Source: Candidatus Pantoea bathycoeliae (lineage in GTDB: Bacteria; Pseudomonadota; Gammaproteobacteria; Enterobacterales; Enterobacteriaceae). From it: DNA of 64,000 bases. The stretch spans positions 23,771 to 87,770 of the forward strand of contig JAUHTP010000006.1 of the NCBI GenBank assembly GCA_031332935.1, written 5' to 3'. Below, one piece after another: positions 1-64,000 of the stretch. A program made the translations under genes and the position numbers. The notes under the pieces were generated by a model. It searched no databases and was not told the origin of the DNA. It saw only the letters and a program-made list of their open reading frames with translations. Position 1 is the first letter of the stretch; the number at the start of each line of letters is the position of its first letter.

Positions 1-389
1 AAGAGAATATCTTTATTTTCGGTAATACGACGCCGCAGGTCGAAGCATTGCGCAGCGGCGGTTATAACCCGCGTAAATATTACGAAGAGGATGCTGAGCT
101 GCATCAGGTGCTGACGCAGCTCGCCTCTGGCGTTTTTAGCCCGCAGGAGCCGGGCCGCTACCGTAATCTGTTCGATGCGCTGGTGAACTTCGGTGACCAC
201 TATCAGCTGCTGGCAGATTACCGCATCTATGTGGATACCCAGGATAAGGTAGATGAGCTTTATCGCAGGCCGGAAGAGTGGCAGCGCCGCGCGGCGCTGA
301 ATATTGCCAATATGGGGTATTTCTCGTCTGACCGGACGATCCAGGAGTACGCTGATGAGATCTGGAATATTAAGCCGGTGAGATTGTAA
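1..389 (+). CDS. glgP: glycogen (alpha-glucan) phosphorylase, C-terminal end; 5' part lies outside the window
   Basis: The ORF is open to the window edge. The C-terminus ...[22 protein letters not shown] is typical of GlgP/MalP, and the gene is convergent with glpD as in E. coli. Confidence 0.85.
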
Positions 390-947
390 GAGGGGCGGGT
401 GCGCGGCCCGCCGAGCCGCTTTTGGTGTGCAGGTGGGCGCATCGTGGTGCGGGTTTCGTTCGCCTGACAGCGAGGGAGTTTCATTCCGCCCACTGCGGGC
501 GACCGAGCAAGGCCGGTGAGCGCCGGCCCTGCACCCGCGCTCCGGGCCAGCCCATCCGCCCGCTTCGCGGGTGCCTTCGCTCCGTCAGGATTTCTGACGG
601 ACCGCGCAGGACAGGCCGTCCTGGCCCGCGCTTTCAGCGACGTCCTGTCGCCTCATCCTGAAATCCTTCCCCGCTCAGCTGATGGGATGGTCCCCCCAAA
701 ACCTCGCTGTGACTTTTTTATTTCAATAAGCCACGTTTATTGCTGCAAGCGCAAACCAGTATTCAGACCACACAGTAGTTAATATAAAGACAGAAGACTT
801 GCAGGCGAGGTAGTGTCAGAGGCTGCCGAAAGCCGGGATTGTTAAGGGGCTGGCGAGCCCCTTAACACGCACGCCAGCAGCGCAGCTGCTGAAACTCCCT
901 GACGCCTGGCGGGCGGAACCTTCTCATAGCCCGCCTGCGCAGCAGGC

Positions 948-971
948 AAAAAAAACGGCGCCGAAGCCCCG
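948..971 (-). terminator. putative rho-independent terminator of glpD
   Basis: On the minus strand a GC hairpin (CGGGGC-TTCG-GCGCCG, one mismatch) is followed by a run of 8 T, 12 nt after the glpD stop. Confidence 0.6.
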
Positions 972-982
972 AATCTCATACT

Positions 983-2491
983 TTAGCTCGCCAGCGACAG
1001 GCTGGGTTTCTGGCCGTGCATTGCCAGCCACTCCGCCACGCGTGCCTGCTGAGCCTCATTCAGCCACATACCTTGCTTGGTACGACGCCAGATCGCATCA
1101 TCCAGCTCGCGTACCCACTCGTTCTGCACCAGATAGCGCAGCTCAGCTTCATAGAACTCATGGCCAAAGTTCTCACCCAAATCTTCCAGGCGAGCAGCCC
1201 CTTCCAGCAGCCGCTCGGTATTGCTGCCGTAAGTGCGCGCATAGTGACGCGCCATGCCTTCGCTGATAAACGGATAGAGACGGCGCAGGCCAGCAGCATA
1301 GTCCTCACGCGTACCAGAAAAATCACCGCCCGGCAGCACGCAGTTTTTCGTCCAGGCCGGCCCCGCGTTCGGGAAGTATTTCACCAGCTTCTCAAGCGCA
1401 TGCTCCGCCAGTTTGCGATAGGTGGTCAGCTTGCCGCCGAACACGGATAGCAGCGGCGTCTGGCCGTTATCGTCATGGATATCCAGCGTATAGTCGCGGG
1501 TGATCGCCTGCGGTGAGTCAGATTCGTCATCACACAGCGGACGCACACCGGAATAGGTCCAGACTACGTCGTTACGTGCCAGCTGCTTTTTAAAGTGGCT
1601 GTTGTAAATCTTGAGCAGATAGTCGATCTCGCTCTCTTCGATTTTGACGTCTTTTGGATCGCCTTTGTACTCCACATCAGTGGTGCCGATGATAGAGAAA
1701 TCATCCATCCACGGAATAACAAACACTATACGGTTATCTTCGTTCTGCAGGATATAAGACTGCTTCTCGTTGTGTACGCGCGGCACCATAATATGACTGC
1801 CTTTGATCAGGCGGATGCCGTAAGGCGATTTTAGCTTCAGGCCGTCGTCGAAGAACTGCTTAACCCACGGACCTGCCGCATTCACCAGCGCTTTGGCGCG
1901 CCAGGTGTAAGTTTTGCCGCTGTCGGCGTCTTCTGCTTCTACCATCCACAGGCCATTTTCACGCCATGCACGCGTTACGCGGGTGCGGGTACGCACTTCA
2001 CCGCCGCGTTTTTCAACTTCCTGTGCGTTCAGAACCACCAGGCGCGCATCGTCAACCCAGCAGTCAGAATATTCGAAACCGCGCGTGATTTCCGGTTTAA
2101 GGGCAGAATCCGCGCCAAAACGCAGGCTCTTACTGCCCGGCAGGCTGGTGCGTTTGCCGAGGTGATCGTATAAAAACAGGCCGGTGCGGATCATCCATGC
2201 CGGACGCAGATGTGGAAGGTGCGGCAGGCGGAAGCGCATCGGGAAAGCAATGTGCGGGGCCATCTTCAGCAGGACTTCGCGTTCCGCCAGGGCTTCGCTG
2301 ACCAGACGGAATTCGTAGTGTTCGAGGTAGCGCAGGCCGCCGTGAATCAGCTTTGAACTGGCAGAAGAGGTCGCGCAAGCCAGGTCCCGCGCTTCCAGCA
2401 TCAGCACTGACAGGCCGCGTCCTGCAGCGTCCGCTGCAATACCGGCACCGTTGATGCCGCCGCCGATCATGATCAGGTCTTTGGTTTCCAC
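983..2491 (-). CDS. glpD: aerobic glycerol-3-phosphate dehydrogenase
   Basis: 502-aa ORF with FAD-binding N-terminus METKDLIMIGGGINGAGIAADAAGRG. It resembles E. coli GlpD over its full length and is divergent from glpE. Confidence 0.97.
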   Translation of the reverse strand: METKDLIMIGGGINGAGIAADAAGRGLSVLMLEARDLACATSSASSKLIHGGLRYLEHYEFRLVSEALAEREVLLKMAPHIAFPMRFRLPHLPHLRPAWMIRTGLFLYDHLGKRTSLPGSKSLRFGADSALKPEITRGFEYSDCWVDDARLVVLNAQEVEKRGGEVRTRTRVTRAWRENGLWMVEAEDADSGKTYTWRAKALVNAAGPWVKQFFDDGLKLKSPYGIRLIKGSHIMVPRVHNEKQSYILQNEDNRIVFVIPWMDDFSIIGTTDVEYKGDPKDVKIEESEIDYLLKIYNSHFKKQLARNDVVWTYSGVRPLCDDESDSPQAITRDYTLDIHDDNGQTPLLSVFGGKLTTYRKLAEHALEKLVKYFPNAGPAWTKNCVLPGGDFSGTREDYAAGLRRLYPFISEGMARHYARTYGSNTERLLEGAARLEDLGENFGHEFYEAELRYLVQNEWVRELDDAIWRRTKQGMWLNEAQQARVAEWLAMHGQKPSLSLAS

Positions 2492-2717
2492 GTCATCCCC
2501 TCCGATGTTCGGAATAGTTCATTAATATTCGTTTTCGAGCATAATAATAATCGTAAACCAACATTGATGCCAAGTTTAACGCGGTAAAAACATTTTAGCA
2601 TTATACAGATAACCTTCCTGTTGAGAAAAAAATACAAAGCTTTAACCTTTGTCAGGTTATCGGCGCTCCTTATCGGGTTACACTAGGTGACAATTGTGTC
2701 GTCGTAATGAGAAAACC
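2492..2717. promoter_or_regulatory. glpD / glpEGR divergent control region (possible GlpR operators)
   Basis: AT-rich divergent intergenic region. TGTTCG...CGAGCA half-site-like motifs at about 2505-2545 resemble GlpR operator half-sites. No experimental support. Confidence 0.4.
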
Positions 2718-3064
2718 ATGGAAACCTTCGAATGCATTAAATGTTCAGCAGGCCAGCGAGAATGTTCAGCAGGCCAGCGAGCATCTGGCGCAAGGCGCGC
2801 TGCTGGTCGACATTCGCGATCCGCAGAGCTTTGCCCTTGGCCATGCGGACAACGCGCAGCACCTCAGTAACAGCAACCTGAATGAGTTCCTCGCCAGTGC
2901 CAGCCGTGAGCTGCCGGTACTGGTGATGTGCTATCACGGCAACAGCAGCAAAGGTGCCACATAGTATCTGCTGAGCTAGGGATTCAGCGCAGCACAGCAT
3001 TGACGGCGGCTTTGACGCCTGGCGCGCTGCCTTTCCGGCGCAGATCAGTAACGGCGGCCTCTGA
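2718..3064 (+). pseudogene. glpE: thiosulfate sulfurtransferase (rhodanese) GlpE, multiply disrupted
   Basis: The native start METFECI (2718) is thrown out of frame by an extra A at about 2738-2740. There is a 21-bp tandem duplication, in-frame TAGs at 2962 and 2977 where E. coli GlpE has Gln, and another frameshift at about 2998 before the conserved IDGGFDAW. The [10 protein letters not shown] core is still recognisable. Confidence 0.85.
2740..2781 (+). repeat. perfect 21-bp tandem duplication inside glpE
   Basis: AATGTTCAGCAGGCCAGCGAG occurs twice back to back (2740-2760 and 2761-2781), giving [14 protein letters not shown]. Confidence 0.95.
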
Positions 3065-4792: not shown

Positions 4793-4809
4793 CTTTGTTT
4801 CTGTGGGGT

Positions 4810-4954
4810 TGCAATCATTTCTGGACTCTCTAGGGGAACGATGGATTAGCCGGAAGCCCTTTACTGACGCGGCTTACAGCGATTTTAAGAATTCTGGACT
4901 CGTCGCAAAAAAAATGAGCAGAAAATGAGTTTTTTGCACTATATTCTGGACTGG
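4810..4954 (+). repeat. prophage left end with three copies of the putative transposase-binding motif (attL-like)
   Basis: The (A/T)TTCTGGACT motif occurs at 4818-4828, 4891-4901 and 4943-4954, all in the same orientation. The spacing resembles Mu L1 versus L2/L3. Confidence 0.6.
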
Positions 4955-5047
4955 ATTGGTCGTGGTTTGAGTAAGTTTTAAAGCCGTTTAAACAATTTTT
5001 GATTAACGATTTTGTTGCTAAATATAAATAGAGAATTTATATTTTTG

Positions 5048-5599
5048 TTAAACGGCCCTTTTGCGCTCGCTTGCTAAGCTATCTTCTGATGCTACTTCAC
5101 CCTCCTCACTAGCCCCCTTTTTGATTTGGTCATAAAGCCGCATAAGACGCTCTTTTTCTTCCTGAGAGAGTAGAAGTAGGGCGTTATCTACGGAGTCAAT
5201 ACGTGATGATGAAAGCAATATTCCTTTGGCTCCTTCTTTATGGATAAGACGGATTAGTGATTCTATATCCTGACGATCAAGAGACTCATAAATCATTAGC
5301 CATGTATGTTTTAAGTTGTCATGCTCTTGTGTTTTTGGGCTATTTTTAGTTCCATGATATTTATTTAGCCCTGACGCGAGCCACTCAAGACTAACATTCT
5401 CAGCTTCAGCTATCGACAAAACTACCTTTAACGCTGGCTCAGTGCCTTTATGTAAGTAGTTATTTATTGTTGATGCAGGTAGCCCCCAAGCCTTAGCTGC
5501 TGAACGAATACTTCTTCCGCCAATAAGCATTTCAAGACGCTCCCTGAAGCTTTCTTTTCCCTCCCAGCCAAAAGCAAATTTATTTTCTTTTGTACCCAT
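5048..5599 (-). CDS. phage repressor (Mu c / CI-like HTH protein)
   Basis: 183-aa ORF on the opposite strand at the left end, as for Mu c. It has an HTH-like segment (RSIRSAAKAWGLPASTINNYLHKG). The gene is AT-rich relative to the rest of the phage. Confidence 0.7.
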   Translation of the reverse strand: MGTKENKFAFGWEGKESFRERLEMLIGGRSIRSAAKAWGLPASTINNYLHKGTEPALKVVLSIAEAENVSLEWLASGLNKYHGTKNSPKTQEHDNLKHTWLMIYESLDRQDIESLIRLIHKEGAKGILLSSSRIDSVDNALLLLSQEEKERLMRLYDQIKKGASEEGEVASEDSLASERKRAV

Positions 5600-5766
5600 T
5601 TTTCTATTCCATGTAAAATTTTGAATTATAAAGGAAAAACAAGAATGCGCTAAAAAAAGAAAAGAAAGAGCTATTTTGCTTTACTTGGGTTATTTTTAGA
5701 GCAATACTTGTCGATAGGAGTAAGCCCCATGACTTACCCGCATGGTTAACTTTTTAGGGTAATCGA
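5600..5766. promoter_or_regulatory. divergent repressor / early promoter-operator region
   Basis: AT-rich 167-bp gap between the divergent repressor and ner genes, equivalent in position to Mu Pc/Pe and O1-O3. Individual operators are not resolved. Confidence 0.5.
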
Positions 5767-6003
5767 ATGATAGATAGAAATGAAGTGAATCATCGTGACT
5801 GGCACCGGATTGATATCGTGGCCTCCCTGCACAAGAAAGGGATCACCATGCAAGATCTCTCCCGCGGCTCGGGGCTGGCGTCCAGCACGTTAAAAAACGC
5901 GCTATATCGTCCCTATCCCAAAGGTGAACGCATTATCGCTAATGCACTCAATGTGGATCCGGCCAGCATTTGGCCGAGTCGTTATATGAGCAAGGTGTCG
6001 TAA
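5767..6003 (+). CDS. ner: Ner-like early transcriptional regulator
   Basis: 78 aa. The motifs RDWHRIDIVASLHKKG...PKGERIIANAL...PASIWPSRY match the Mu Ner / Nlp (SfsB) family. Confidence 0.88.
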   Translation: MIDRNEVNHRDWHRIDIVASLHKKGITMQDLSRGSGLASSTLKNALYRPYPKGERIIANALNVDPASIWPSRYMSKVS

Positions 6004-6044
6004 TTATGTTTGTTACGGTGAGTGAGTGAGTCGGTTTACCCGGA

Positions 6045-8051
6045 TTGCCTGGCACTTTGCAGGGACTTCGCTGCTCATTGAATAAGCGGACTGCAAATTC
6101 ACCCGATTTAGTCCGTAAGCGTTCGGGCACCAAGGCTTTCGAGTACCACATCGATTGTTTACCAGAGCAAGCTCGCGAGATCATCAAACAGCGGCACTAT
6201 AAATCCTTAATAGCGCAAGCCCCGGCCCTACCGGTTGATGAGTCCGTCAAGCGCAGCACCGCCATCAAGTCGCGTGATGAGCTGGCGATCATGCGCCAAT
6301 GTCCCGCCCTGCTCGAGCGCAAGGTGCAGGCCCTGAACGATCACCAGAAGCAGATCGCCGATGCGCGCATGATGCTGGCACAGGAAGTGATCCGATTGCA
6401 GCAGGCCGGCATGACCCGCATTGCGGCGGTGACCTTTATCGTCGAGGAGTCAAAGGCCGGCACATTGCCCGAGGCCCTGCAACGCGCCGCCACGCTGGCT
6501 AACGCCAAAAAGGGCCGCACCCGGCAAGGGGTGGGCAAAAGCAGCCTGCAGGAATGGGTGAGTCTCTATCTTAGCGCTGAGCGGCCCCAGGAGCGTCTGG
6601 CGATACTGGCGCCCGGTCAGCCGAAGAAGCAGCAGCGTCCCGAAGACATGACGTGGTTTTACGCCCTGTTCTGGCCGCATTATGCCCGGCCCTGTGGCCT
6701 GACGGTGCTGGAAGCCTACCGCGCATTTCAGGCGGACTGGCAGGGCAAATACCATGACCAGCCTGCCATGCTGGCGGCCTTGCCGACCTATGACAAGGTC
6801 AATCGCATGGTCAGGCGGGTGGCACCCAACCGAAGGGTCAAGGGCCGTGTCACCGGTTCAGCGCTCAAGGCGTATCAGGTGTACCAGCAGCGGGATTGGG
6901 CGCAGATGCCGGTGAACGGCTGCTGGATAGCTGACGGCAAGTCGCTGAACATGAAAGTGGCGCATCCGATACACGGGCGGCCCTTTACCCCTGAGCTGAC
7001 GTTGGTGCTCGATGGGCGCACCCGCTATCTGGTGGGCTGGAGCCTGTCTCTGGCGGAAAACGCCATCGCGGTGGCCGATGCGTGGCGTTATGCCATCCAG
7101 CACCACGGCAAGCCACTGTTTGCCTACTCCGATAACGGCGGTGGTGAGACCAACAAGATGCTGGATGCGGATATCACCGGGATTTTCCCCCGGCTGGGCA
7201 TTGAGCATATTACCGGTATCCCCGGTAACCCGCAGGCGCGGGGCATTATCGAGCGGCTTAATGGGGTGCTGCCACGTCGTCTGGCTCTGCGCTTTCAGAC
7301 CTATAACGGGCTAAGCGCTGACCCCAACGGGACGCGGGTGCAGGGGCAAAAACTGCTGAGTCTGTCGAATGCCCTGCGTCAGGGGAAGGAGCTGAACGCG
7401 GTCCAGCAGAAAACGCTGGCGATATTGCCCAGCTGGCGGCAGCTGATAGACGCCATCGAGGAGGAGGTGCAGCACTATAACCACAGCCATGAGCACAGCG
7501 CGCTGCCGAAGGTCAACGGCAAGTCGATGACGCCGGCTGCTTACCGCAAAGCCCTGCTGGCCGAGGAGGGGGATAATATTGAATACCTGACGCCGGGCGA
7601 GTTACGCGAGATGTTTATGCCAGAAGAGAAACGGGTAGCCCAGCGCGGCTGGGTTGAACTGTTGAATAACCAGTATTTTGCCCGGGAGCTGATTGAGGTA
7701 GACCGCCAGACCGTGCGGGTGGCCTACGATATCCATAATCCTAATGAAGTGATTATTCGTCAGATGGACGGGGCCTATCTTTGCACCGCGCTCTGGAATG
7801 GCAATACGGCCTCGCCGGTGCCGGTCTCCAGAGTGGAAAAAGCCCTGGAAGCGCGCGCTAAACGTCGCATTAAACTGGCTGAAAATAAGATTCAGGATGA
7901 GAAAGACGAATTACGTCCGGTGATTGACGCGCCCAGGGAGAACGATTACAGCCTGCTGATACCCAAGGTAGCGGCAGCCGAAAAAGAGAAGGTGTATTTA
8001 TTTGAATCCGAATATGAGCACGATATCAAGCAGGTCGGTAATAACCGCTAA
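6045..8051 (+). CDS. Mu-type DDE transposase (MuA-like); the native N-terminus is interrupted by an in-frame TGA
   Basis: 668-aa ORF from TTG 6045 with an rve/DDE core region (WIADGKSLNMKV..., SDNGGGE...). An in-frame ATG at 6006 gives MFVTVSE, then TGA (6027-6029), then VGLPGLPGT..., where MuA-like proteins have Trp. Confidence 0.85.
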   Translation: MPGTLQGLRCSLNKRTANSPDLVRKRSGTKAFEYHIDCLPEQAREIIKQRHYKSLIAQAPALPVDESVKRSTAIKSRDELAIMRQCPALLERKVQALNDHQKQIADARMMLAQEVIRLQQAGMTRIAAVTFIVEESKAGTLPEALQRAATLANAKKGRTRQGVGKSSLQEWVSLYLSAERPQERLAILAPGQPKKQQRPEDMTWFYALFWPHYARPCGLTVLEAYRAFQADWQGKYHDQPAMLAALPTYDKVNRMVRRVAPNRRVKGRVTGSALKAYQVYQQRDWAQMPVNGCWIADGKSLNMKVAHPIHGRPFTPELTLVLDGRTRYLVGWSLSLAENAIAVADAWRYAIQHHGKPLFAYSDNGGGETNKMLDADITGIFPRLGIEHITGIPGNPQARGIIERLNGVLPRRLALRFQTYNGLSADPNGTRVQGQKLLSLSNALRQGKELNAVQQKTLAILPSWRQLIDAIEEEVQHYNHSHEHSALPKVNGKSMTPAAYRKALLAEEGDNIEYLTPGELREMFMPEEKRVAQRGWVELLNNQYFARELIEVDRQTVRVAYDIHNPNEVIIRQMDGAYLCTALWNGNTASPVPVSRVEKALEARAKRRIKLAENKIQDEKDELRPVIDAPRENDYSLLIPKVAAAEKEKVYLFESEYEHDIKQVGNNR

Positions 8052-8062
8052 GGATATATTGT

Positions 8063-8992
8063 ATGACAACGCGAGAACGTATTTTCCAGCTGATGGAACG
8101 GTCAGGCTACACCCAGCGCAAGGTAGCCGATAAAACCGGATTAAGCAGTGCCACCATTTCACAATATTTAAAGGGGGTTTACAACGGCAATATTGATAAC
8201 GTCGAGGGTACGCTGCGGGATTTTCTTGACCGCGAAACAGAGCGCGCCCACCGGCGGGACATCAAGGTGCATTTTGTGCCGACCCATCTGGCCAGGGTGG
8301 CGCTGGACCTGATTAGTGCCACGCACGACTTCGGCGATATCAGCGTGATATACGGCCCGGCCGGCATGGGAAAAAGCATGGTGCTGAAAGAGTATGTGCG
8401 CGCCAACAGCGCCAATAAAGGCGTCATCCTGATTGAAGCTGACCCCGGCTATACCGCCAAGGTGTTATTGCAGGCGCTGTGCGCCCGGCTGGGTCTGCGG
8501 AAAACCGGCAATATCCACGAGCTGGTCGAGGAGTGCGTACAGGGGCTGCGCGACAAGCACTGGCTGGTCCTGGTTGACGAGGCTGAGCTGCTGCCCTACC
8601 GGGCGCTTGAGGTCCTGCGCCGCATTCACGACCGTTCCGGGGTGGCCATTGTGCTGGCGGGCATGCCGCGTTTGCTGCTCAATCTGAAAGGCTCCCGCGG
8701 GGAATACGCCCAGCTCTATAGCCGGGTGGGCATGGCGTTAGACCTGGAGTCTCGCCGGAAAGACAGTGAAGCCGAGGATTTCAGTGCCATTCTGGGCAGC
8801 CTGTTATCGAACGGCGAGGCCACGGGCGAGCCGCTTGCGCCGGAGATTGCCGCCGCCTTTCGCAAGCATTCACGGGGCAATTATCGCTGCCTGTTTAAAC
8901 TGGCGCGCGGGGTGGCCCGGACAAGCGCTATTGGCAATCAGGGGATGTCCGTGACGTTAATCGACCACTATGCGGAAATGCTAATTCATTGA
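8063..8992 (+). CDS. MuB-like AAA+ transposition target-capture ATPase
   Basis: N-terminal HTH (YTQRKVADKTGLSSATISQYLKG), Walker A GPAGMGKS and Walker B LVLVDEAE. It sits immediately after the transposase. Confidence 0.9.
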   Translation: MTTRERIFQLMERSGYTQRKVADKTGLSSATISQYLKGVYNGNIDNVEGTLRDFLDRETERAHRRDIKVHFVPTHLARVALDLISATHDFGDISVIYGPAGMGKSMVLKEYVRANSANKGVILIEADPGYTAKVLLQALCARLGLRKTGNIHELVEECVQGLRDKHWLVLVDEAELLPYRALEVLRRIHDRSGVAIVLAGMPRLLLNLKGSRGEYAQLYSRVGMALDLESRRKDSEAEDFSAILGSLLSNGEATGEPLAPEIAAAFRKHSRGNYRCLFKLARGVARTSAIGNQGMSVTLIDHYAEMLIH

Positions 8993-9003
8993 AGGAGGAA
9001 AGT

Positions 9004-9294
9004 ATGTCAGTCCATCATAAAGCGGCATCGACCAACAATCATCTTATCGCCGCGATGACGCAGGCAGGAGCCGTTATTCATTATTTAACGATAAGAGGCG
9101 TGAGCGTAAAAAGCATGATATTGCATAATTGCAAACCCGTTATCCGTATTGAACACCATCCGCTCTGTGAGCAGTTATTAAAACAGGGTCAGGCGAATTA
9201 TATCACCGTGGGCAAAAACGCACGGGGTAATTTTAAGCAAGGGGCATTCATGAAAGGTGGGTGCAAGGTGATTTGGTCAACGTCATTACATTGA
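9004..9294 (+). CDS. hypothetical early-region protein
   Basis: ATG at 9004 preceded by GAAGGAGGA. 96 aa, with no family recognised. Confidence 0.4.
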   Translation: MSVHHKAASTNNHLIAAMTQAGAVIHYLTIRGVSVKSMILHNCKPVIRIEHHPLCEQLLKQGQANYITVGKNARGNFKQGAFMKGGCKVIWSTSLH

Positions 9295-9301
9295 GGCTCT
9301 T

Positions 9302-9517
9302 ATGACAATTGAAATTAAAATCGTTGTTCAGCAAACACAACTCGGCATTGATATGAATATTGATGCCAGCGGTATGGGCAGTGAAGTTGAAAAGAAGGAA
9401 GCCCAGTTTATTCACGATGCACTTGCCACCGTATTATCGTGCCGGGCTGATTTCGAGGCGATTAATAAGGGCACTATTGCCAATACATTTAACAGGAGAG
9501 GTCATCATGTCCACTAA
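9302..9517 (+). CDS. hypothetical early-region protein
   Basis: 71-aa ORF tightly packed in the early operon. No family recognised. Confidence 0.35.
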   Translation: MTIEIKIVVQQTQLGIDMNIDASGMGSEVEKKEAQFIHDALATVLSCRADFEAINKGTIANTFNRRGHHVH

Positions 9518-10136
9518 CTCACATGACAATACCGTGCCCGCCGGCTACTGGCAGGACGCCAAAGGCGTATTGATACCCGACGCCATGGTAAAACCCATTG
9601 ATAAGGAGCGCGACGCGCTGGTTAAAGATATTGTGGCGCGCGCCCGGCCGCTGCATGAGGCATTGCGAGACTTTAAACACCGCGCGTTTGTCGATATCCA
9701 GGCATTGATTGACCTGTCGATTGAGCAGTACGGGGTAAAACGTGGCGGCAGAAAAGGCAATGTGACGCTGTATTCCTTTGATGGCCGCTACAAGGTTATC
9801 CGCGCCCTGCAGGACCGCATTACCTTTGATGAGCGTATTCAGGCCGCCAAGGCATTGATTGATGACTGCATGACGGAGTGGACGCAGAATGCACGCCCGG
9901 AGCTGCTGGCCATTATTGACCAGGCATTTTCCACCGACAAGAACGGAGATATTAATCCGGCCCGTATTCTGCAGCTGCGTCGCCATGATATTACCGACCC
10001 ACGCTGGTTGCGGGCAATGGATGCGCTGGCGGAAGCGGTGCAGGTGGTCAGCAGCAAGAGCTATATCCGCCTTTATGAGCGTATCGACGAGACCGGGCAA
10101 TATCGGCCGCTGTCGCTGGATATCGCAGGGGTGTAA
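9507..10136 (+). CDS. DUF3164-family protein (conserved in Mu-like early regions)
   Basis: ATG at 9507 follows AGGAGAG. The sequence (GYWQDAKGVLIP...VKPIDKERD...SFDGRYKV...) matches my recollection of DUF3164 proteins of transposable phages. Confidence 0.7.
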   Translation: MSTNSHDNTVPAGYWQDAKGVLIPDAMVKPIDKERDALVKDIVARARPLHEALRDFKHRAFVDIQALIDLSIEQYGVKRGGRKGNVTLYSFDGRYKVIRALQDRITFDERIQAAKALIDDCMTEWTQNARPELLAIIDQAFSTDKNGDINPARILQLRRHDITDPRWLRAMDALAEAVQVVSSKSYIRLYERIDETGQYRPLSLDIAGV

Positions 10137-10139
10137 GGA

Positions 10140-10331
10140 ATGAATGCCAAACAGTTTAATCAATGCTATCCGGTCGGTGCCACTTTTATTTATCAAACCA
10201 ACCGGATTTTAAAAAATGGCACCTTAATAAGGACCCTGGACAGGGCAAAATATTTAACCACCTGTACTGTGGTTGAAATTAATTGCGCGCCTTATTTTGC
10301 GAATGTTCTGTGGCTAACACCGAAACACTGA
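10140..10331 (+). CDS. hypothetical early-region protein
   Basis: 63-aa AT-rich ORF directly after the DUF3164 gene. Confidence 0.35.
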   Translation: MNAKQFNQCYPVGATFIYQTNRILKNGTLIRTLDRAKYLTTCTVVEINCAPYFANVLWLTPKH

Positions 10332-10442
10332 ATGAATAATGCATTAATACTCTGTTTTAGCATGGCGTCAATCCGCCGGTGCTGGCTTGCGCCAAATAAA
10401 CGTCATGCCTGTTTTTCTCACCCCACTCGGGAGGATATAAAC

Positions 10443-10652
10443 ATGTTATATCGTGTGATTAAATGTGAATATAGGGATAACGGTAATCGCTGTATTTATT
10501 ATCTTAATGACCGCAGTCTGGTGCAGAAGTCACGCCTCGTCCCGGTGCCCTTCAGCCTGCGTTTTTATGACGCGCGGCAATGCATGATTTATTCAGACGC
10601 TATTCGCCAGCAAATGAAACAGGCGGTCATGCGCTATAAAAAACAGCATTGA
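10443..10652 (+). CDS. hypothetical early-region protein
   Basis: ATG at 10443 preceded by GGGAGGA. 69 aa (MLYRVIKCEYRDNGN...). Confidence 0.4.
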   Translation: MLYRVIKCEYRDNGNRCIYYLNDRSLVQKSRLVPVPFSLRFYDARQCMIYSDAIRQQMKQAVMRYKKQH

Positions 10653-10687
10653 GGAAAAATCATGAACAGACCCATGAATACAGACCC

Positions 10688-11379
10688 ATGAATAACGTGA
10701 TGCTCGATATCGAAACGCTGGGTAAAAAGCCGGTTGCCCGATAGTGTCGGTGGCGGCGGTGATGTTTGCGCCGGCAACGGGGCGGGTTGGACAAACATTT
10801 TACGAACGTATCGATTATCAGGCCGCTCTCCAATACGGTGAGCCAGAGGAAGGCACTCTGCTGTGGTGGCAAAAACAGAGCGATGAGGCACGTCACGAGG
10901 CCTTTGGCGGTAAAGCACGTCCCGATGTTGTGGCGCGCGCCTTGCGGACGTTTATCGCCAGCCACTGCGCCAAACCTCGCGTACCCTGGGGTAACGGCGC
11001 GGTATTCGATATTGCCCTGCTGCAAAGCTGGTTCGACCGCGTTGACCCGCAAAAAGACGACCAGGGCAATGACCGCTACCCCTGGTCATTCTGGGATGTC
11101 GCCGACCTGCCCACCCTGGTGCGGCTGTCAGGCATTGATGTGCGCGCCATCCTCTACCGCCGGCATCCGACGACGCCGGTGTTGCTGTACGTTTTCGACC
11201 TGAAGGAGAGCGCCCGTCAAGGCGTGGTGGCGATAGAGGGCCTGGTCGCAGGTCAATCCGCCGGCGCTGCCGACAGCAAGGTGGGTTCACTGACGGTTAG
11301 TGCTGTCGATATCGTCAGTGATCTGGACGTATTCAAATATCAGGCAGATGATGAGGTCGTGTGGGGCACGCTGGCATAA
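10688..11379 (+). pseudogene. 3'-5' exonuclease-like protein (DEDD, Rv2179c-like), frameshifted
   Basis: MNNVMLDIETLGKKPVA (ATG 10688) runs into TAG at 10742. The continuation IVSVAAVMFAP...VWGNGAVFD...PWSFWDVADL is in another frame, consistent with loss of one C at 10737-10739. The C-terminal part is of doubtful authenticity. Confidence 0.6.
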
Positions 11380-11556
11380 TCCTCCCTATTTGTCAGCACC
11401 AATCACGGCTCCCGATTTCAGCCGATCATCGATTCGCATCCAAGGTCGATCATGATTTCGCATGAGGCACGATCATCCGGTCAGACAGTGAGTGCCCATT
11501 GAAATCTTCCCCCCACCAACGTAACACTGACCCAGGCCGTCAGAAGAGGTATCACC

Positions 11557-12039: not shown

Positions 12040-12299
12040 CGCCCTGTAAAGGCCGTGGCGCGTTTTTGATAGCCAGGCAAGCGGGATGATGCGGGTGAAA
12101 CCGCGTTAAGCGATTCTGAGGCGATTTAAACGGGTTTTAAACGGGGTATCGCCACCCACGTTAGCGGTGTAGGCTGACGGCAGCCCGTTATTGCGATGTT
12201 TTCCCCTCACCATTACCCTCTACACCCCCGTCACGACGAGATCCCCGATGCTCACGTTAGGCTGCTTCCCATGAAAACACTTTCTGGGACCGCCACCGC

Positions 12300-13813: not shown

Positions 13814-13826
13814 GGAGACACTGCAC

Positions 13827-14729: not shown

Positions 14730-14731
14730 GC

Positions 14732-15805: not shown

Positions 15806-15856
15806 CGTGATGGCCCGTCAAGGGCTGCGCGACAAACCATCCACCAAGGGGGACGC

Positions 15857-54851: not shown

Positions 54852-55535
54852 ATGAAACAATATTTGCTGGCCCCTTCAATCCTTGCGGCGGACTTTGCCC
54901 GCCTTGGTGAAGATACCGCAAAAGCGTTAGCCGCGGGCGGCGACGTAGTGCATTTCGACGTGATGGACAATCACTACGTTCCCAACCTTACGATGGGGCC
55001 GATGGTGCTGAAAGCGCTGCGCGACTACGGCATTACCGCGCCGATTGATGTGCATCTGATGGTAAAACCGGTAGATGCGCTGATCCCGGAGTTCGCTAAA
55101 GCGGGTGCCAGCTATATCACTTTTCATCCTGAGGCGAGTGAGCACGTTGACCGCACGCTGCAGCTGATTAAAGAGCACGGCTGCAAAGCGGGCCTAGTGT
55201 TTAATCCGGCGACGCCGCTCAGCTATCTCGATTACGTGATGGACAAGCTCGACGTCATCCTGATTATGTCCGTTAACCCCGGCTTCGGCGGCCAGTCCTT
55301 TATTCCCGGCACGCTGGACAAGCTGCGTGAAGCGCGCAGGCGCATCGATCACGGCGGCTACAATATTCGCCTTGAAGTCGATGGCGGGGTGAAAATTGAT
55401 AACATTGCGCAGATCGCTGCGGCGGGCGCAGATATGTTTGTTGCGGGCTCGGCGATTTTCGGCCATCCCGATTACAAAAAAGTGATTGATGAAATGCGTC
55501 ACGAACTGGAGAAGGTTAATGGCTCATTTCACTGA
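54852..55535 (+). CDS. rpe: ribulose-phosphate 3-epimerase
   Basis: 227 aa, highly similar to E. coli Rpe ([22 protein letters not shown]...). Confidence 0.97.
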
Positions 55536-56142
55536 TATTCGCGCGCTGACGTTTGATCTCGACGACACGCTGGTGCACAGCGCACCGGGCTTGGCGCAGG
55601 CAATCGATCTGGCGCTGGCCGATCTACAGCTGCCGCCAGCGGGCCTGGAACGTACCTCAACCTGGATTGGCAACGGCGCGGACATCATGATGTCGCGCGC
55701 GCTGTTTGACAAACACTACGCTGATACGGTGGAAGCAGGCAGCACGCTGTTTCCCTAGGTGAAAGAGACGCTGCTGGCGCTGCACGCTAAAGGTCTGCCG
55801 CTGGCAATCGTGACCAACAAGCCGACCCCTTTCGTTGCACCGCTGCTGGAATCGCTCGGCATTTCCGACGCCTTTACGCTGATTATCGGCGGCGATGACG
55901 TGATCGTGAAAAAACCGCATCCGGCGGCGATTTTCCTGGTGCTGGGCCACTTCGGCGTATTGCCGAATCAGCTGCTGTTTGTGGGTGATTCGCGTAACGA
56001 TATTCAGCCAGCGCAGGCGGCTGGCGTGCCGAACGTCGCCATGACCTATGGCTACAACTACGGCGAGCCGATCTCCGACAGCAACCCGAATTTGACTCTC
56101 GACTCTTTTGATGAACTTTTGCCCGCTCTCGGGCTGCACTAA
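55519..56142 (+). pseudogene. gph: phosphoglycolate phosphatase with an in-frame amber codon and an internal deletion
   Basis: [25 protein letters not shown]... runs to a TAG at 55756-55758 (TLFP*VKETL; E. coli has FLFPHVADTL). The same frame then continues to the native end (...LLPALGLH). About 30 cap-domain residues are missing relative to E. coli. Confidence 0.78.
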
Positions 56143-56155: not shown

Positions 56156-57178
56156 ATGAGCAAACCCATTGTTTTCAGCGGCGCACAGCCGTCCGGCGAA
56201 CTTACCATTGGCAACTATATGGGTGCGCTGCGTCAGTGGGTGCAGATGCAGGACGATTTCCACTGCATTTACTGCATCGTCGATCTGCACGCCATCACCG
56301 TTCGCCAAGATCCTGCGGCGCTGCGTAAGGCCACGCTGGATACGCTGGCGCTTTATCTCGCCTGCGGCATCGACCCGAATAAAAGCACTATCTTCGTTCA
56401 GTCGCATGTACCGGAACATGCCCAGTTGAGCTGGGTGCTGAACTGCTATGCCTATTTCGGCGAGCTGAGCCGCATGACGCAGTTTAAAGACAAGTCAGCG
56501 CGCTACGAAGAGAACATCAACGCGGGCCTGTTTGATTATCCGGTGCTGATGGCGGCAGATATCCTGCTGTATCAGACCAACCATGTGCCGGTGGGCGAAG
56601 ACCAGAAGCAGCATCTGGAGCTAAGCCGCGACATCGCGCAGCGCTTCAATGCGATCTACGGTGATATTTTCCGCGTGCCTGAGCCGTTTATTCCGAAATC
56701 AGGCGCGCGCGTGATGTCGCTGCTGGAGCCGACGCGCAAGATGTCCAAGTCGGACGATAACCGCAATAACGTTATTGGCCTGCTGGAAGATCCAAAGTCG
56801 GTAGTGAAGAAGATCAAACGTGCCGTGACTGACTCCGAAGAGCCGCATGTGGTGCGCTACGATGTGAAAGAGAAGGCGGGCGTGTCAAACCTGCTGGACA
56901 TTCTGTCGGGCGTGACGGGTAAAACCATCGCCGAGCTGGAAGCGGAGTTCGAAGGCAAGATGTATGGCCACCTGAAAGGCGTGATGGCGGATGCGGTCTC
57001 CGGTATGCTCTCTGAGCTGCAGGAGCGCTATAACCGCTATCGCAACGATGAAGCTTTCCTGGAGCAGGTGATGCGTGACGGCGCGCAGAAAGCGCGTGAA
57101 CGTGCGCAGGAGACGCTGAAAAAGGTGTATGAAGCCATTGGCTTTGTCGCTGCGCCTGCTCCAGCAGCAGCTGGTTGA
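56156..57178 (+). CDS. trpS: tryptophan--tRNA ligase (C-terminal tail replaced at a deletion junction)
   Basis: [24 protein letters not shown] (HIGH-like) and KMSKS motifs, collinear with E. coli TrpS to ...YEAIGFVA. The last residues PAPAAAG and the stop are encoded by antisense cysG DNA. Confidence 0.94.
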
Positions 57179-57975
57179 TCTCTGCCTGCGGCACGCAGTG
57201 ATGTCCGGCGCGCTTGCCGACGAAGATGCGCTCGGTGTCGCGCCAGGTTAAGGATCTCCTCCGAGACCAGCCGATCGTAAACAATTACTTCAGCATGCTG
57301 GATCTGTTGTAGCCCTTTCAGCGTCAGCAGGCCCGCATCGCCCGGCCCGGCGCCCACCAGCGTCACTTCACCCTGCGCCGGCAGATCGTCACTGAACAGC
57401 GAGTCGGTAATCTGCGCTGCACGCGCGCTGTTGCCATTGGCGAGCGTCTGCGCCAGCCGGTCGCTGGTGAAAAGCGTTCCCAGAAATAGCGGCGCTGCGC
57501 CATGGAAGTGAAGCGCTGTTTAACGCGTGCCCGCCAGCGACGCCAGCTCGCCGAAATGCTGTGGCAGCATCGCCTCCAGCTTCTCGCGCAGCAGGCGCCA
57601 GCACGGGCGCGCGGCGGCCTGAAGAGACCGCGACCATCAGCGGCGAACGGTCAATAATCGACGGCATGATGGCGCTGGCCTGCTCTGGGGCATCGACCAG
57701 ATTGCAAGAAGATGCGAAGCGCTTGGGCAGCATCCGCCACCTGCTGGTTCACAACATCATCATCTGTCGCCGCGACCACCAGCCAGCCTCAAACGCGCCG
57801 GTAATAAGCGTCAGCTCGCCGTTGTCAGCCCACTGGCGGAAGGCTGGAGAAAAGTGCAGCGCGCCGACGTGCAGGTCGGCACCCGCAGCAAGCGCGCTTT
57901 GCGCTCAGCGACGTCACCGCCACCGACCAGTAAACAGCTTTTGCCCTGAAGGCGGCAAATAAAGAGGGAAGTAAC
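57151..57975 (-). pseudogene. cysG: siroheme synthase CysG remnant: 3'-truncated with multiple frameshifts
   Basis: Recognisable pieces lie in different frames: [80 protein letters not shown] and [27 protein letters not shown]. The sequence then stops at the trpS junction (about 57150), so about 170 C-terminal codons are missing. Confidence 0.82.
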
Positions 57976-57987: not shown

Positions 57988-58386
57988 CTAAAAGCGAGAG
58001 GGGAGCATGCTGCCGGTGAGCGCGTCACCGGCAGCGCAGCATAGCATCAGGGAGAGGATAAGGTCATGCGCAAATCTCGTGCCTGCGTTGACGCGCACTG
58101 GATACGCGGCGACAGAGCGCGTCGCATCTTCCATGCAGTAGCCGTCACTGAGGCGGAAGCATTGCTTCTTCAGCGGGCTAGCCACCCAGAGCGTATTGTC
58201 ATGCTCGGCGATAATGCCGCGCGACAGGACGCTGGCCTGCGCAAAGGAATCGATATTGCTAATCGCGAACAGCTCATCGTTGTGATGCGGCCGGAAAATG
58301 GCGATCTGCTGGTTATTCACCAGCGCGCACACGCCGGTCGCCGGCAGGATCTGTTCGATATCGCAAACGGGTCTCCACTGGCTCAT
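57988..58386 (-). CDS. nirD: nitrite reductase small subunit NirD (about 24-aa C-terminal extension relative to E. coli)
   Basis: MSQW...GVCAL...QIAIFRP...FAISNID.F...SVLSRGIIAEH...LWVASPLKKQCFRLSDGYCMED matches NirD. The tail ...TRFAHDLILSLMLCCAAGDAL... has no counterpart, so the native stop may have been lost. Confidence 0.75.
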   Translation of the reverse strand: MSQWRPVCDIEQILPATGVCALVNNQQIAIFRPHHNDELFAISNIDSFAQASVLSRGIIAEHDNTLWVASPLKKQCFRLSDGYCMEDATRSVAAYPVRVNAGTRFAHDLILSLMLCCAAGDALTGSMLPSRF

Positions 58387-60908
58387 ATTTCGCTCTCCTC
58401 TATCAGGGTAACGGCAATGCGTTCTTCCGGACGCGCCGGACGATTCTGCTGGCGTTCAGGAACCGTCTGCACGTTGGGATCGCGCTGCGGCGCGTTGATA
58501 AAGTGGGCGAAGCGGGCGTGCTGTGCAGGATCGTCCACCGTCGCTTTCCACTCGCAGTGGACGCGGGCGCGCAGCACGCTCAGCTCGGCCTCCAGCTTGC
58601 TGTTGATGCCCAGCTTGTCGTTGATGATGACGCTACGCAGATAGTCGATACCGCCTTCAAGGCTTTCCAGCCACAGCCAGGTATGCTGCAGGCGATCGCC
58701 GGTGCGGATATAGAACATCATAAAGCGGTCAAGGTAAGCGACCAGCGTATCGCGATTGAGGTCAGCCGCCAGCAGGTCGGCATAGCGCGGCTTCATGCCG
58801 CCGTTGCCGCAGACATAGAGATTCCAGCATTTCTCCGTGGCGATAATGCCCACATCTTTACCCTGGGCTTCAGCACATTCACGCGTACAGCCGGACACAC
58901 CAAATTTCATTTTGTGCGGCGTACGAATGCCTTTGTAGCGGTTCTCCAGCTTAACGCCGAAGCCAAGGCTGTCGCCGACGCCATAACGGCACCAGGCGCT
59001 GCCAACGCAGGTTTTCGCCATGCGCAGTGCCTTAGCGTAGGCCTGGCCGGTTTCAAAGCCCGTGTCGATAAGCTGTGACCAGATGGCTAGCAGATCGTCT
59101 TTCTGCGCGCCTAACAGGCCGATGTGCTGCGAGCGTGATTTTTGTGTAGAGGCGGTAGCGCTCGGCCACTTCGCCAATCACTTTCAGTCCCTGCGGCGTG
59201 ATTTCACCGCCTGGCGTACGCGGAATAACGGAATAGGTACCGTCTTCTGGATATTGCGGAGAAACAGGTCGTTGCTGTCCTGTAGCGGCGTGTGCTGAGG
59301 CGCGAGCACATAGTCGTTCCAGCATGATGCCATCAGGGAAGCGACAGTGGGCTTACAGACTTCGCAGCCGTAACCTTCACCATATTTCGCCAGCAGCGCG
59401 TCGAAAGTTTTGATCTCTTCAACGCGAATCAGGTGGTAGAGCTCCTGGCGCGAAGAGAGGAAGTGGGCGCAGAGATGATTATTGACCTCAATACCCTGAC
59501 GGCTCAGCTCGGCATTCATCACCTGCGTCAGCAGCGGGATACAGTCGCTGCAGCCGGCTCCAGCGCGGGTTTCGCTTTTCAGCGCCGCCACGGTGTGACA
59601 GCCGCCCTGAACCGCCTTGATGATGTCGCCTTTACTGACGTCGAAGCAGGAGCAGATCTGCGCGCTGTCCGGCAGTGAATCGACGCCCATCACCGGTTTT
59701 TCGCCGCTGCCAGCGGGCAGGATCAAGCCCTCTGGATTTTCCGGCAGCGGAATGGCGTTAAGCACGAACTGCAGCAGGTTACCATAGTCGCTGGTATCGC
59801 CCACCAGCACTGCGCCGAGCAGCGTGGTACCGTCTTCGCTGACAATGAGGCTGTAGACCGAAAGGCTCTCATCCAGCCAGATATAGCTGCGTGCACCCGG
59901 CGTGCTGCCATGGGCGTCGCCAATACCGCCAACGTCGACGTCGAGCAGCTTGAGCTTGGCGCTCATGTCTGCGCCATGGAAAGCATTGTAGCGGTCGAGC
60001 AGCACGTCACTGGCGACCTGCGCCATTTTATAGCCCGGTGCCACTAGGCCAAACGTGAGGTTCTGCCAGGCAGCACACTCGCCAATGGCGTAGATCGCTG
60101 GTCTGACAGCGGTTGTCTATGGCGATACCACCGCGCTGGCCAAGCGCCAGGCCGCACTGTTTCGCCAGTTTGTCTTGCGGGCGAATACCCGTAGAGAACA
60201 CGATAAAGTCGACGTCAAGCGTGCTGCCGTCGGCGAACTGCAAGGTTTTACCGCCTTTTGCATGGTGCACGATTTGCTGGGTATTTTTGCTGGTGTGCAC
60301 CTGCACGCCCATCTCTTCATTTTCCGGCGCAGCTGCTCGCCGCCCTGCACGTCGAGCTGTTCCGCCATCAGCTCTGGCGCAAATTCGATAACGTGGGTTT
60401 CGATGCCTAAATTTTTCAGCGCACCGGTGGCCTCCAGGCCAAGCAGGCCACCGCCAATGACCGCGCCCCGTTTGCTACGCCGCGCGCACGCCTCAATGGC
60501 GTTGAGATCTTCAATGGTGCGGTAAACGAAGCAGTCTGTCCCTTCTGAGCCTTTAATCGGCGGGATCCACGGATAAGAGCCAGTGGCGAAAATCAGGGTA
60601 TCGTAGCGAACGGCACGGCCAGTATTAGAGTGGATCAGCTTCTCTTCACGGTTAATGGTGATGGCGCGCTCACCCAGTAGCAGTTCAACCTGATGTTTTT
60701 CGTAGTAGCCTTCGCGTACCAGCGAGAGTTCTTCGGCGGTATGGTGGGAAAAGTAGGCGGAAAGGTGAACACGGTCGTAGGCGACGCGGGGTTCTTCACA
60801 GAAGACGGTTAATGCGAACTGGCCGGGGTCGGCTTTGTCGATCAGCTCCTCAATAAAGCGATGCCCAACCATGCCGTTACTAATGACGACGACATTGTGC
60901 TTGCTCAT
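58383..60908 (-). pseudogene. nirB: nitrite reductase [NAD(P)H] large subunit NirB, fragmented by at least four frameshifts
   Basis: Collinear NirB sequence from MSKHNVVVISNGMVGHRFIEEL... (60908) to ...RIAVTLIEESEI (58383) is spread over ORFs 60117-60953, 60028-60312, 59184-60044, 59053-59325 and 58383-59177. Confidence 0.9.
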
Positions 60909-62453: not shown

Positions 62454-62469
62454 TGTGATTTATGTCACG
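62454..62469. promoter_or_regulatory. putative CRP site in the tsgA-ppiA divergent region
   Basis: TGTGA-TTTATG-TCACG compared with the consensus TGTGA-N6-TCACA. E. coli ppiA is CRP-dependent. Confidence 0.5.
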
Positions 62470-62608
62470 AAGCATTTGCGTGCGTGTAAATTATGTTCAA
62501 ATTACGCCAAGCGTAAATAAGGGTAAAACACGCTGGCTCTTGTATTTCATGCTCTTTACAATCAATCTCGTTTAAAAGCTGCTCTCCAAGGTAAGGAAGG
62601 AATTATTC

Positions 62609-63183
62609 ATGCTTAAACGTACATTTACAGCGGCAATTGCCCTGCTTGCGCTCTCAACGGTTTCTGTATCAGCGCTGGCTGCCAAAGGCGATACGCACGT
62701 CCAGCTCACCACCTCCGCCGGTAATATCGAACTCGAACTGAATAACCCAAAAGCGCCGGTTTCGGTAAAGAATTTCGTCAATTACGTTAACAAAGAATTC
62801 TATAACAACACCATCTTCCATCGCGTTATCCTTGGCTTTATGGTGCAGGGCGGCGGTTTTACTGCTGATATGCAGCAGAAGCAGACCAACGCACCAATCA
62901 AAAACGAAGCGGATAACGGTTTGCGCAACCTGCGCGGCACCACATTTCGATGGCGCGTACCGCAGAGAAAGACAGCGCGACCAGCCAGTTCTTTCTCAAC
63001 GTTGCTGACAACGCCTTCCTCGATCACGGCCAGCGCGATTTTGGCTACGCGGTTTTTGGTAAAATTGTGAAAGGCATGGACGTTGCCGAAAACATTTATC
63101 AGGTACAGACCAAAGATGTCGGGCCTTATCAACATGTTCCGGTAAAACCAGTAGTTATCCTGTCTGCGAAAGTCCTCCCATAA
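62609..63183 (+). pseudogene. ppiA: periplasmic peptidyl-prolyl isomerase A, frameshifted
   Basis: A signal peptide and cyclophilin core ([18 protein letters not shown]..., FHRVI.GFM.QGGGF) run up to ...NGLRNLRGT. An apparent 2-nt insertion at about 62941-62946 follows. The remainder, [37 protein letters not shown]...[10 protein letters not shown], is in the 62950-63183 frame. Confidence 0.85.
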
Positions 63184-63294
63184 CTTTTTACGCCGCCATC
63201 CGCTGACGGCGTTCCCTTGCCTCTCTCCGGCAAAGGGAAAATTCGCTTCAATACTCAGCTTCAAGAGTCTGGACAACCCCGAGCAGGAGACGGG

Positions 63295-63468
63295 ATGGCA
63301 AATAAACTCACTGAGAAACAGAAAAATACGCTCTGGCAGCAGCGACGCATCGCCAGCTATCAGGCCAGCTGTCGGCTGGAAGGTTTTACCCTAGCAGACC
63401 CCACCAGCCGTTACGATCAGGCTGAAGCGCGACTCGACTCGCTGAGGAGACAGTATGGTGCCGAATAG
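63295..63468 (+). CDS. yhfG: Fic antitoxin-like protein YhfG
   Basis: MANKLTEKQKNTLWQQRRIASYQASCRLEG... resembles E. coli YhfG ([29 protein letters not shown]). AGGAGA lies upstream, and the gene overlaps the fic start. Confidence 0.75.
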   Translation: MANKLTEKQKNTLWQQRRIASYQASCRLEGFTLADPTSRYDQAEARLDSLRRQYGAE

Positions 63469-64000
63469 TGCCGTCGCGCGCGATCCTTACCTGTGGCAAA
63501 ACGACGATGTGCTGAAAAATCGTCTGGATATCCATGATGCCGCGCAGCTGCGCAAGGCTGAGCTGGCATTCAGCAGCGCGCGCCTCGCCACGCTGGAGCT
63601 GGGACTGCCATCATTGGCCTGCCTTTCCTGTACCATATTCACCGTACGCTATTCTAGGACATCTATGCCTGGGTAGGTGAGCTACGCACCATTGATATCT
63701 GGCGCGACGACACGCCGTTTTGTCATTTCAAGTACATCGAAAAAGAGGGCAATACGCTGATGGACGCGCTGGAAGAGGAAGAGGGGCTGCGCAACCTGGA
63801 GCAGGAGCAATTTGTGGCACGTATTGCGCATTATTATTGCGTAATCAATATGCTGCATTCGTTCCGCGAAGGTAACGGTCTCGCCCAGCGCATCTTCTTT
63901 GAACAGCTGGCGCTGCACGCTGGTTATTTCCTCGAGTGGCAAAACGTCAAGGCGCAGCCGTGGCGCGAGGCGAACCAGGCCGGGGACAATGGCGACCTTG
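63455..64000 (+). pseudogene. fic: Fic-family adenylyltransferase with a frameshift and an amber codon; 3' end lies outside the window
   Basis: ...RDPYLWQNDDVLKNRLDIHD... runs to ATLELG, followed by a frame change at the G-run at about 63601-63603. An in-frame TAG at 63655-63657 (HRTLF*DIYAW) falls where E. coli Fic has Gln. The Fic motif region HSFREGNGLAQRIFFEQLA is downstream. Confidence 0.8.

Follow-up and report, generated by a model that had tools for sequence, protein, structure and literature searches.

This analysis concerns a 64,000-nucleotide stretch of bacterial DNA, which we call the window, in which many genes of a conserved chromosomal neighbourhood are broken beside others that remain open. 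The gene order is that of Escherichia coli K-12, as a preliminary description made from the letters alone had held, and it was recovered by tblastn with the K-12 proteins of the glgP-to-pabA region (loci L001 and L002). It runs from glgP' through glpD, glpE, glpG and glpR to a 25-kb insert, resumes with malQ', nfuA, gntX, bioH, tex', greB, ompR, envZ, pck, hslO, hslR, yrfG, igaA, nudE, mrcA, the hof genes, aroK, aroB, damX, dam, rpe, gph and trpS, and ends on the right with cysG', nirD, nirB, tsgA, ppiA, yhfG and fic. Between 16 and 18 of the 42 ancestral genes (38-43%) are disrupted, and 22 are intact and full length, namely glpD, glpG, glpR, nfuA, bioH, greB, ompR, envZ, pckA, hslO, yrfG, igaA, nudE, mrcA, aroK, aroB, damX, dam, rpe, trpS, tsgA and yhfG. 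The preliminary description had counted about 15 pseudogenes among some 40 genes; that density holds, all 15 genes it named as disrupted do carry frameshifts, premature stops or truncating deletions, and all 22 it named as intact are so, although the count itself has to be extended by hofP, nirD and a 79-codon gene for a secreted protein.

Lesions were called by a frameshift-aware, dynamic-programming alignment of intact orthologous proteins to the window DNA, and each was then inspected in the DNA itself. Our references were E. coli K-12, Pantoea rwandensis (L053), P. piersonii (L003) and two close relatives from metagenomes, of which L062 is a 71-kb JGI contig with 95-96.5% nucleotide identity to the window across glgP to pck, and L059 a 14-kb ENA contig with 95-97% identity across aroB to pabA; further orthologous loci came from the Pantoea metagenome contigs L050-L052 and from the P. 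septica group (L003-L007). Close relatives with intact genes (L059, L060, L062 and L063, at 95-97% identity) are to be found in several public metagenomes (ENA ERZ27241725; JGI 3300013000, 3300027312 and 3300030500), and an undegraded, very close relative does exist outside the host-adapted lineage discussed below.

The window IgaA shares 93-94% protein identity with those of P. piersonii, P. septica, P. latae and 'Ca. P. deserta', and 11 concatenated intact genes are 89-90% identical in nucleotides to the P. septica / P. latae / P. piersonii clade, 87.6% to the stink-bug symbiont Candidatus P. persica and 78-81% to other Pantoea. These matches place the organism within Pantoea, in the P. septica clade. 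An affiliation with Sodalis, to which the preliminary description had compared it, is to be rejected, the best matches of IgaA, TrpS and NfuA being Pantoea or Erwiniaceae and the Sodalis NfuA only 85-86% identical.

The broken genes

Some of the damaged genes are still nearly complete. In glpE, for example (thiosulfate sulfurtransferase; 2718..3061, + strand), 22 bp are duplicated in tandem at 2739-2760, 2 bp are missing at 2995, and two CAG codons, for Gln75 and Gln80, have become TAG stops; the 5' lesion of the gene is contained in contig L055 of an independent Logan assembly, which is 100% identical to the window. The gene for Hsp15, hslR (41530..41900, -), was broken by a 16-bp deletion at 41774 and a stop at Gln59 (41742), and is likewise two open reading frames in the independent contig L057, again 100% identical. 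Near the right end, ppiA (62609..63180, +) has a 2-bp insertion at 62941-62942, in codon 112 of 190, which contig L058 confirms, and fic (63455..64000, +), which is cut off by the window edge, has lost 1 bp at about 63605 and acquired a stop at Gln68 (63655). The lesion of gntX (yhgH, ComF-like; 31460..32133, -) is a single 1-bp deletion at codon 29, confirmed in contig L056, and leaves a reading frame of 215-217 codons open without the N-terminal zinc-ribbon part. In gph (phosphoglycolate phosphatase; 55519..56139, +) there are a 57-bp in-frame deletion at 55694, flanked by direct repeats of about 11 bp, and a stop at Gln99 (55756). The independently assembled contig L061 stops exactly at the junction of that deletion, and from this contig end the deletion could be polymorphic in the sequenced population.

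Other genes survive as remnants. Of malQ (29849..30776, +) only codons 361-690 are left, with frameshifts at 30041, 30078 and 30629 and one or two stops (30356); codons 1-359 are gone from the window, and L056 is 100% identical to it from 30182 onwards. A sucrose-phosphorylase-like gene of family GH13 (33388..34235, -), named from TIGR03852 at a score under the curated cut-off, is reduced to codons 287-563, codons 1-286 being gone, and has a 1-bp deletion at about 33506, while tex (yhgF; 34164..35142, -) keeps codons 1-327, with 1-bp deletions at 34590 and 34297, and has lost its 3' 1.36 kb (codons 328-779). One 2,396-bp deletion is common to both genes, its junction at 34163-34171 showing 9 bp of microhomology. 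Between greB and ompR lies the remnant of the 79-codon secreted-protein gene (35878..36107, -), with a stop at Trp20 (36056) and a frameshift at 35966, which is intact in both L062 and L053. This may be the small lipoprotein pseudogene suspected in the preliminary description, and it is indeed broken, but the protein has no lipobox cysteine; a DUF1471 gene (33115-33381) that was considered for the same role is intact and was rejected.

The DNA-uptake operon hofMNOPQ (48518..50828, +) is wrecked from end to end. It has a 1-bp deletion in hofM at 49040, a stop in hofN at 49602 (codon 91), and a 1,105-bp deletion, with its junction at 50176-50181, that takes the 3' end of hofO (cut at codon 104), the whole of hofP and codons 1-198 of hofQ, whose remnant has in addition a frameshift at 50603 and a stop at 50685.

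The nitrite reductase genes and the linked siroheme synthase gene are also damaged. In nirB (NADH nitrite reductase large subunit; 58386..60908, -) there are deletions of 1, 8, 1 and 2 bp at about 60320, 60093, 59246 and 59133, together with a 3-bp in-frame deletion, all of them within L058, which is 100% identical to the window. The lesion of nirD (57988..58386, -) is a 3' frameshift: 4 bp are lost at 58080 (codon 103), other residues stand in place of the last 6, and the reading frame comes to 132 codons. The cysG remnant (siroheme synthase; 57147..57973, -) has lost codons 293-454 to a 568-bp deletion and carries 8 small indels besides (deletions of 5, 1, 11, 2, 19 and 7 bp and two 1-bp insertions). 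That density of small indels, 8 in 824 nt, is far above that of nirB (5 in 2,523 nt) at similar substitution divergence, and cysG, the remnant of which lies outside the independent contigs, may have been the first to be inactivated.

Three further genes, malP, nirC and codA (cytosine deaminase), were first counted as deleted by means of distant references and have been withdrawn, because they are missing from L062 or L059 too; since they are absent from the closest relatives they are not losses of this lineage.

Lesions, selection and mutation

The preliminary description had proposed a comparison with free-living relatives. For the window region, the same alignment method gave no lesion in 90 comparisons at five undegraded Pantoea loci (18 genes each) and none in the 29 genes called in L059 and L062, every one of which is full length. 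Within the window itself, frameshifts or stops number 0 in about 22.5 kb of intact coding sequence and about 38 in about 12 kb of remnants, and frameshifts alone number none and about 28, a distribution with P ~e^-25 under uniform error. Set against L059, six intact genes (4.9 kb) have no indels at all and damX has in-frame ones only, whereas six damaged genes (5.4 kb) have 17, of which 14 are deletions (1-57 bp) and 3 are insertions (1-2 bp), plus the 568-bp deletion.

The lesions are of varied kinds: the 22-bp tandem duplication; losses of 2, 5, 7, 8, 11, 16, 19 and 57 bp flanked by short direct repeats; nonsense substitutions, about nine in number and for the most part CAG to TAG; and four large deletions (0.57-2.4 kb) whose junctions show microhomology of 8-12 bp. 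In addition, five contigs of the independent Logan assembly, made from SRA run SRR25145046, match 14.4 kb of the window at 100% identity, and these stretches include more than 12 lesions, in glpE, malQ, gntX, hslR, nirB and ppiA. Given this identity, the types of lesion and their clustering, we take the lesions to be real, and sequencing error is therefore excluded for practical purposes.

The substitutions tell a similar story about selection once they are polarised by an outgroup, for which we used L050 in the right part of the window and L053 in the left. In the intact genes of the right part, synonymous and non-synonymous changes (S:N) stand at 61:31 on the window branch and 63:7 on the sister branch (N:S 0.51 vs 0.11; Fisher p=4e-4), and in those of the left part at 89:37 and 74:10 (N:S 0.42 vs 0.14; Fisher p=4e-3). 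In the pseudogenes the corresponding counts are 57:60 against 70:6 on the right and 37:43 against 44:4 on the left. The synonymous counts are equal on the two branches, that is, clock-like, and the genes that are still intact show a 3-4.6x excess of amino-acid change on the window branch over the sister. Taking about 3.1 non-synonymous sites per synonymous site, omega on the window branch is about 0.35 for pseudogenes and about 0.14 for intact genes, compared with about 0.03 on the sister branches. Without polarisation, dN/dS between the window and L059 hardly sets the two classes apart (0.14 for pseudogenes, 0.09 for intact genes); the outgroup places nearly all of the non-synonymous change on the window branch and not on that of L059. 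By these counts the genes now broken were strongly constrained in the sister lineage, and purifying selection is relaxed in the genes that the window lineage has retained. With dS between the window and its close relatives at 0.11-0.15, the branch is a short one, and the N:S ratios suggest that the pseudogenes would have evolved neutrally over some quarter to third of it.

The mutation spectrum has shifted as well. Changes from GC to AT outnumber the reverse by 241 to 127 on the window branch, a two-fold bias, and stand at 126:139 on the sister branches (p=7e-6). There is also a bias towards deletion, with 14 small deletions and 3 insertions in the pseudogenes relative to L059, to which the four deletions of 0.57-2.4 kb are to be added.

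Probable host restriction and its alternatives

We think it very probable that purifying selection on this P. septica-clade lineage has of late become far weaker, in the way seen once bacteria are confined to a host, and that the organism is most probably a gut symbiont of a stink bug. Early reductive evolution had already been proposed in the preliminary description, and it now finds support in the intact relatives, the relaxed selection, the AT bias, the deletion bias and a prophage that is itself decaying. We infer the host-restricted lifestyle because of close kinship to described stink-bug symbionts with the same pattern (PMC10720322); the dispensability of each function lost is inferred likewise.

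The course of events was probably as follows. Once the lineage was restricted to a host, purifying selection would have been much weakened, and genes no longer needed were knocked out by ordinary mutation: nonsense changes (CAG to TAG and similar), deletions of 1-57 bp between short direct repeats, four microhomology deletions of 0.6-2.4 kb, and a single deletion that abuts an end of a Mu-like prophage. The functions lost, and thus the first to go, are DNA uptake (hofMNOPQ, gntX), the reduction of nitrite along with the siroheme synthase linked to it (nirBD, cysG), the use of glucans (malQ and the GH13 phosphorylase) and a number of functions in stress response or quality control (hslR, ppiA, fic, tex, gph and glpE). 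What has stayed intact is housekeeping together with possible host-nutrient genes, among them mrcA, trpS, aroK, aroB, bioH, rpe, pck, ompR, envZ, igaA and nfuA, so that cell-wall synthesis, tRNA charging and the synthesis of aromatic amino acids and biotin appear to have been protected.

Two of these losses were put differently in the preliminary description. It spoke of nitrite respiration, and nirB and nirD are indeed broken, but NirBD is the cytoplasmic NADH nitrite reductase and not a respiratory enzyme. It also had siroheme synthesis lost; the nir-linked cysG is dead, but the wider claim holds only if there is no second copy of cysG elsewhere in the genome. Sulfite reductase requires siroheme, and with this cysG dead sulfate assimilation would therefore depend on a second siroheme synthase gene elsewhere. 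In P. bathycoeliae a complete sulfate-assimilation pathway has been reported (PMC10720322), and if the window belongs to that genome, either there is a second siroheme synthase elsewhere or the reported pathway is non-functional.

P. bathycoeliae, the gut symbiont of the stink bug Bathycoelia distincta, has a genome of 3.16 Mb in 127 contigs (N50 70.5 kb) with a guanine-plus-cytosine (GC) content of 54.85%, about 87% average nucleotide identity (ANI) to P. septica and P. latae, and 1,747 pseudogenes to 2,128 intact genes, or 43% (PMC10720322). The window fits it well and may come from this very genome. It resembles P. bathycoeliae in belonging to the P. septica / P. latae clade and in its pseudogene fraction (43% published, 38-43% here), and differs in GC, which averages about 57% both over the whole window and in its non-prophage part; the supplements of that paper do not mention cysG, nirB or hofQ. 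Candidatus P. persica has about 46% pseudogenes (PMC10720322), and among stink-bug symbionts it is the genomes of intermediate size that hold the most (PMC8032781). In the P. persica locus to hand (L048, from the symbiont of Acrosternum arabicum), 8 of the 18 genes in the shared segment are broken, including tex and hofMNOPQ as in the window. P. persica is however a separate lineage, nearer to P. latae, and its lesions lie at other positions; pck and igaA are broken there and intact in the window, and hslR is intact there and broken in the window. With both positions and gene sets differing, erosion in the two lineages was therefore independent and partly convergent. The P. persica igaA has 2 stops and 1 frameshift (10001-11795 of L048) and its pck 3 stops and 1 frameshift. 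Bacteria normally tolerate the loss of igaA only where Rcs signalling has been lost too.

Sodalis glossinidius, SOPE and the Sodalis-allied symbionts are recently host-restricted bacteria with hundreds to thousands of young, recognisable pseudogenes (PMC3499248). The likeness to the window is that of Enterobacterales with many such genes; the difference is one of family, the close protein matches of the window all being Pantoea or Erwiniaceae. SOPE has moreover undergone a massive expansion of insertion sequences (IS), which has no counterpart in the window.

Several points nevertheless weigh against a reading of the window as the product of host restriction. The sequence itself gives no ecological or host information, and the evidence is confined to 64 kb of genome. 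The non-synonymous excess in intact genes is not significant when set against the clade member L007, and across L006 and L007 the contrast is weaker or non-significant. No IS transposase was found in the window, its sole mobile element being the decayed Mu-like prophage; IS expansion is frequent, but not universal, in early genome reduction. Finally, two of the broken genes could still be functional: gntX, the weakest of our pseudogene calls, with its one 5' frameshift, and nirD, altered in the last 6 residues only.

Might the same erosion have taken place in a recently host-restricted plant or animal pathogen rather than in an insect gut symbiont? We regard this as improbable, though it is the strongest of the alternatives. 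A model would be Erwinia tracheiphila, which is rich in insertion sequences, unlike the IS-free window. There are clinical and plant-associated isolates within the P. septica clade (PMC10720322), the window carries no feature that would identify a host, and losses in DNA uptake, nitrite reduction and stress proteins are not specific to insect symbiosis. Set against this are the losses of tex and the hof genes, convergent with those of P. persica, and the fit of the window to the P. bathycoeliae genome in both ANI relationships and pseudogene fraction, so that a stink-bug gut symbiont is much the better candidate.

A second possibility is that decay is concentrated locally, in the window, and that the rest of the genome is ordinary, a notion encouraged by the modest span of the evidence, 64 kb, and by the prophage inserted within it. 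Yet the lesions extend across the whole 64 kb and at least 12 separate transcription units, the prophage has decayed too, and raised N:S and AT bias in intact genes across the window are signals of the lineage as a whole; with relaxed selection, AT bias and deletion bias all lineage-wide and the prophage decayed, a merely local hotspot is therefore very unlikely. The idea that the genes are truly intact and the lesions are errors in sequencing or assembling a draft genome, or a metagenome-assembled one, is hardly credible, for although the source is an unannotated draft contig and a few lesions are 1-base deletions in short homopolymers (e.g. tex 34590, T5 to T4), the independent assembly reproduces more than 12 of the lesions, many lesions are multi-base, nonsense or kilobase-sized with microhomology, frameshifts keep to the remnants, and the broken genes carry a non-synonymous excess as well.

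For this Pantoea clade the literature already describes early genome decay and how far it has gone, at 43-46% pseudogenes (PMC10720322), and the value of the window under host restriction is therefore confirmatory, as a clean, well-controlled local example of how bacterial genome decay begins after a change of lifestyle. It may perhaps offer more, and here we are tentative. The lineage parted from the fully intact L059 and L062 some 4-5% of nucleotide divergence ago, and the eroding genome might make with them an unusually close before-and-after pair, by which the earliest stages of erosion could be dated and put in order; intact relatives at 95-97% identity would let its onset be dated. That P. 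persica has lost tex and hofMNOPQ independently hints that genes may go in a repeatable order, and the deletion at the Mu end could point to a transposable phage as a direct agent of gene loss.

The prophage and other features

The 25-kb insert is a decayed Mu-like transposable prophage (4802..29848, +; 25.0 kb) that replaces 1,184 bp of host DNA, namely the glpR-malQ spacer and malQ codons 1-359, its flanks being 1,184 bp apart in L062. It opens with a divergent repressor (5048-5599, -), a MuA transposase of the DDE type (6045-8051; PHROG 310, E=7e-160) and a MuB ATPase (8063-8992; PHROG 296), and downstream of MuB come head, tail, baseplate and fibre genes in Mu-type order. The ends, both of them intact, are 27-bp terminal inverted repeats that start with TG (TG...CA), and the motif TTCTGGACT occurs in 5 copies over the two ends, against 0.18 expected by chance. 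MuA, MuB, the divergent repressor and inverted TG...CA ends with repeated transposase sites are together what marks a Mu-like phage, and the element shares its repressor, transposition genes, head and tail order and repeated transposase-binding motifs with bacteriophage Mu and Klebsiella phage ST405-OXA48phi1.1. Among 50,697 phage records searched by megablast, the prophage had no close DNA match.

Phages of the Mu type are however 33-37 kb long. By comparison with a 35-kb relative, the element here has no lysis, terminase, portal or MuF genes. At least 4 of its genes carry frameshifts, including gpN, gpP and gp47, and the tape-measure gene is in pieces. There is also no 5-bp target duplication, the flanks being GTTTC and CGTAG, because 1.18 kb of host DNA beside one end of the prophage has been deleted; malQ codons 1-359 were lost by this deletion, flush with the prophage end. 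Judged by target duplication and gene set, the element is not a functional prophage and is itself decayed.

A scan of the whole window against Rfam at gathering thresholds gave no match, and no contig was returned by look-ups of the exact IgaA protein or of the tex and ppiA fragments. The intact trpS (56156..57178, +) has a C-terminus 6 residues longer than usual, with 340 residues in place of 334 (L059 ends ...VAAP*), because the 568-bp cysG deletion took its stop codon; the deletion ends just short of harming this essential gene. In glpG (3094-3909) the reading frame is open, with a lineage-specific 9-bp in-frame deletion and an N:S of 8:2 on the window branch against 1:4 on the sister, and the gene may be under relaxed selection and heading towards pseudogene status. 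Among the records compared, L049 (Pantoea sp. BRM17, a 2.6-Mb scaffold) matches the window along 20 kb in nothing longer than blocks of about 200 bp, with breaks of 1-5 nt between them, and the pattern resembles an artefact of assembly or consensus in L049 itself.

The prophage, finally, is a compositional mosaic. Its head and tail genes, in the block at 12-26 kb, have 62-64% GC, above the roughly 57% of the host, and its right end, in the block at 26-30 kb, has 41-47%. This low-GC end holds C-terminal parts of tail fibres, a glucosyltransferase gene (27972-28724, -) and a Dam-like methylase gene (29005-29709), and the N-terminal part of the tail fibre is present twice, at 25316-25558 and from 26544 onwards.

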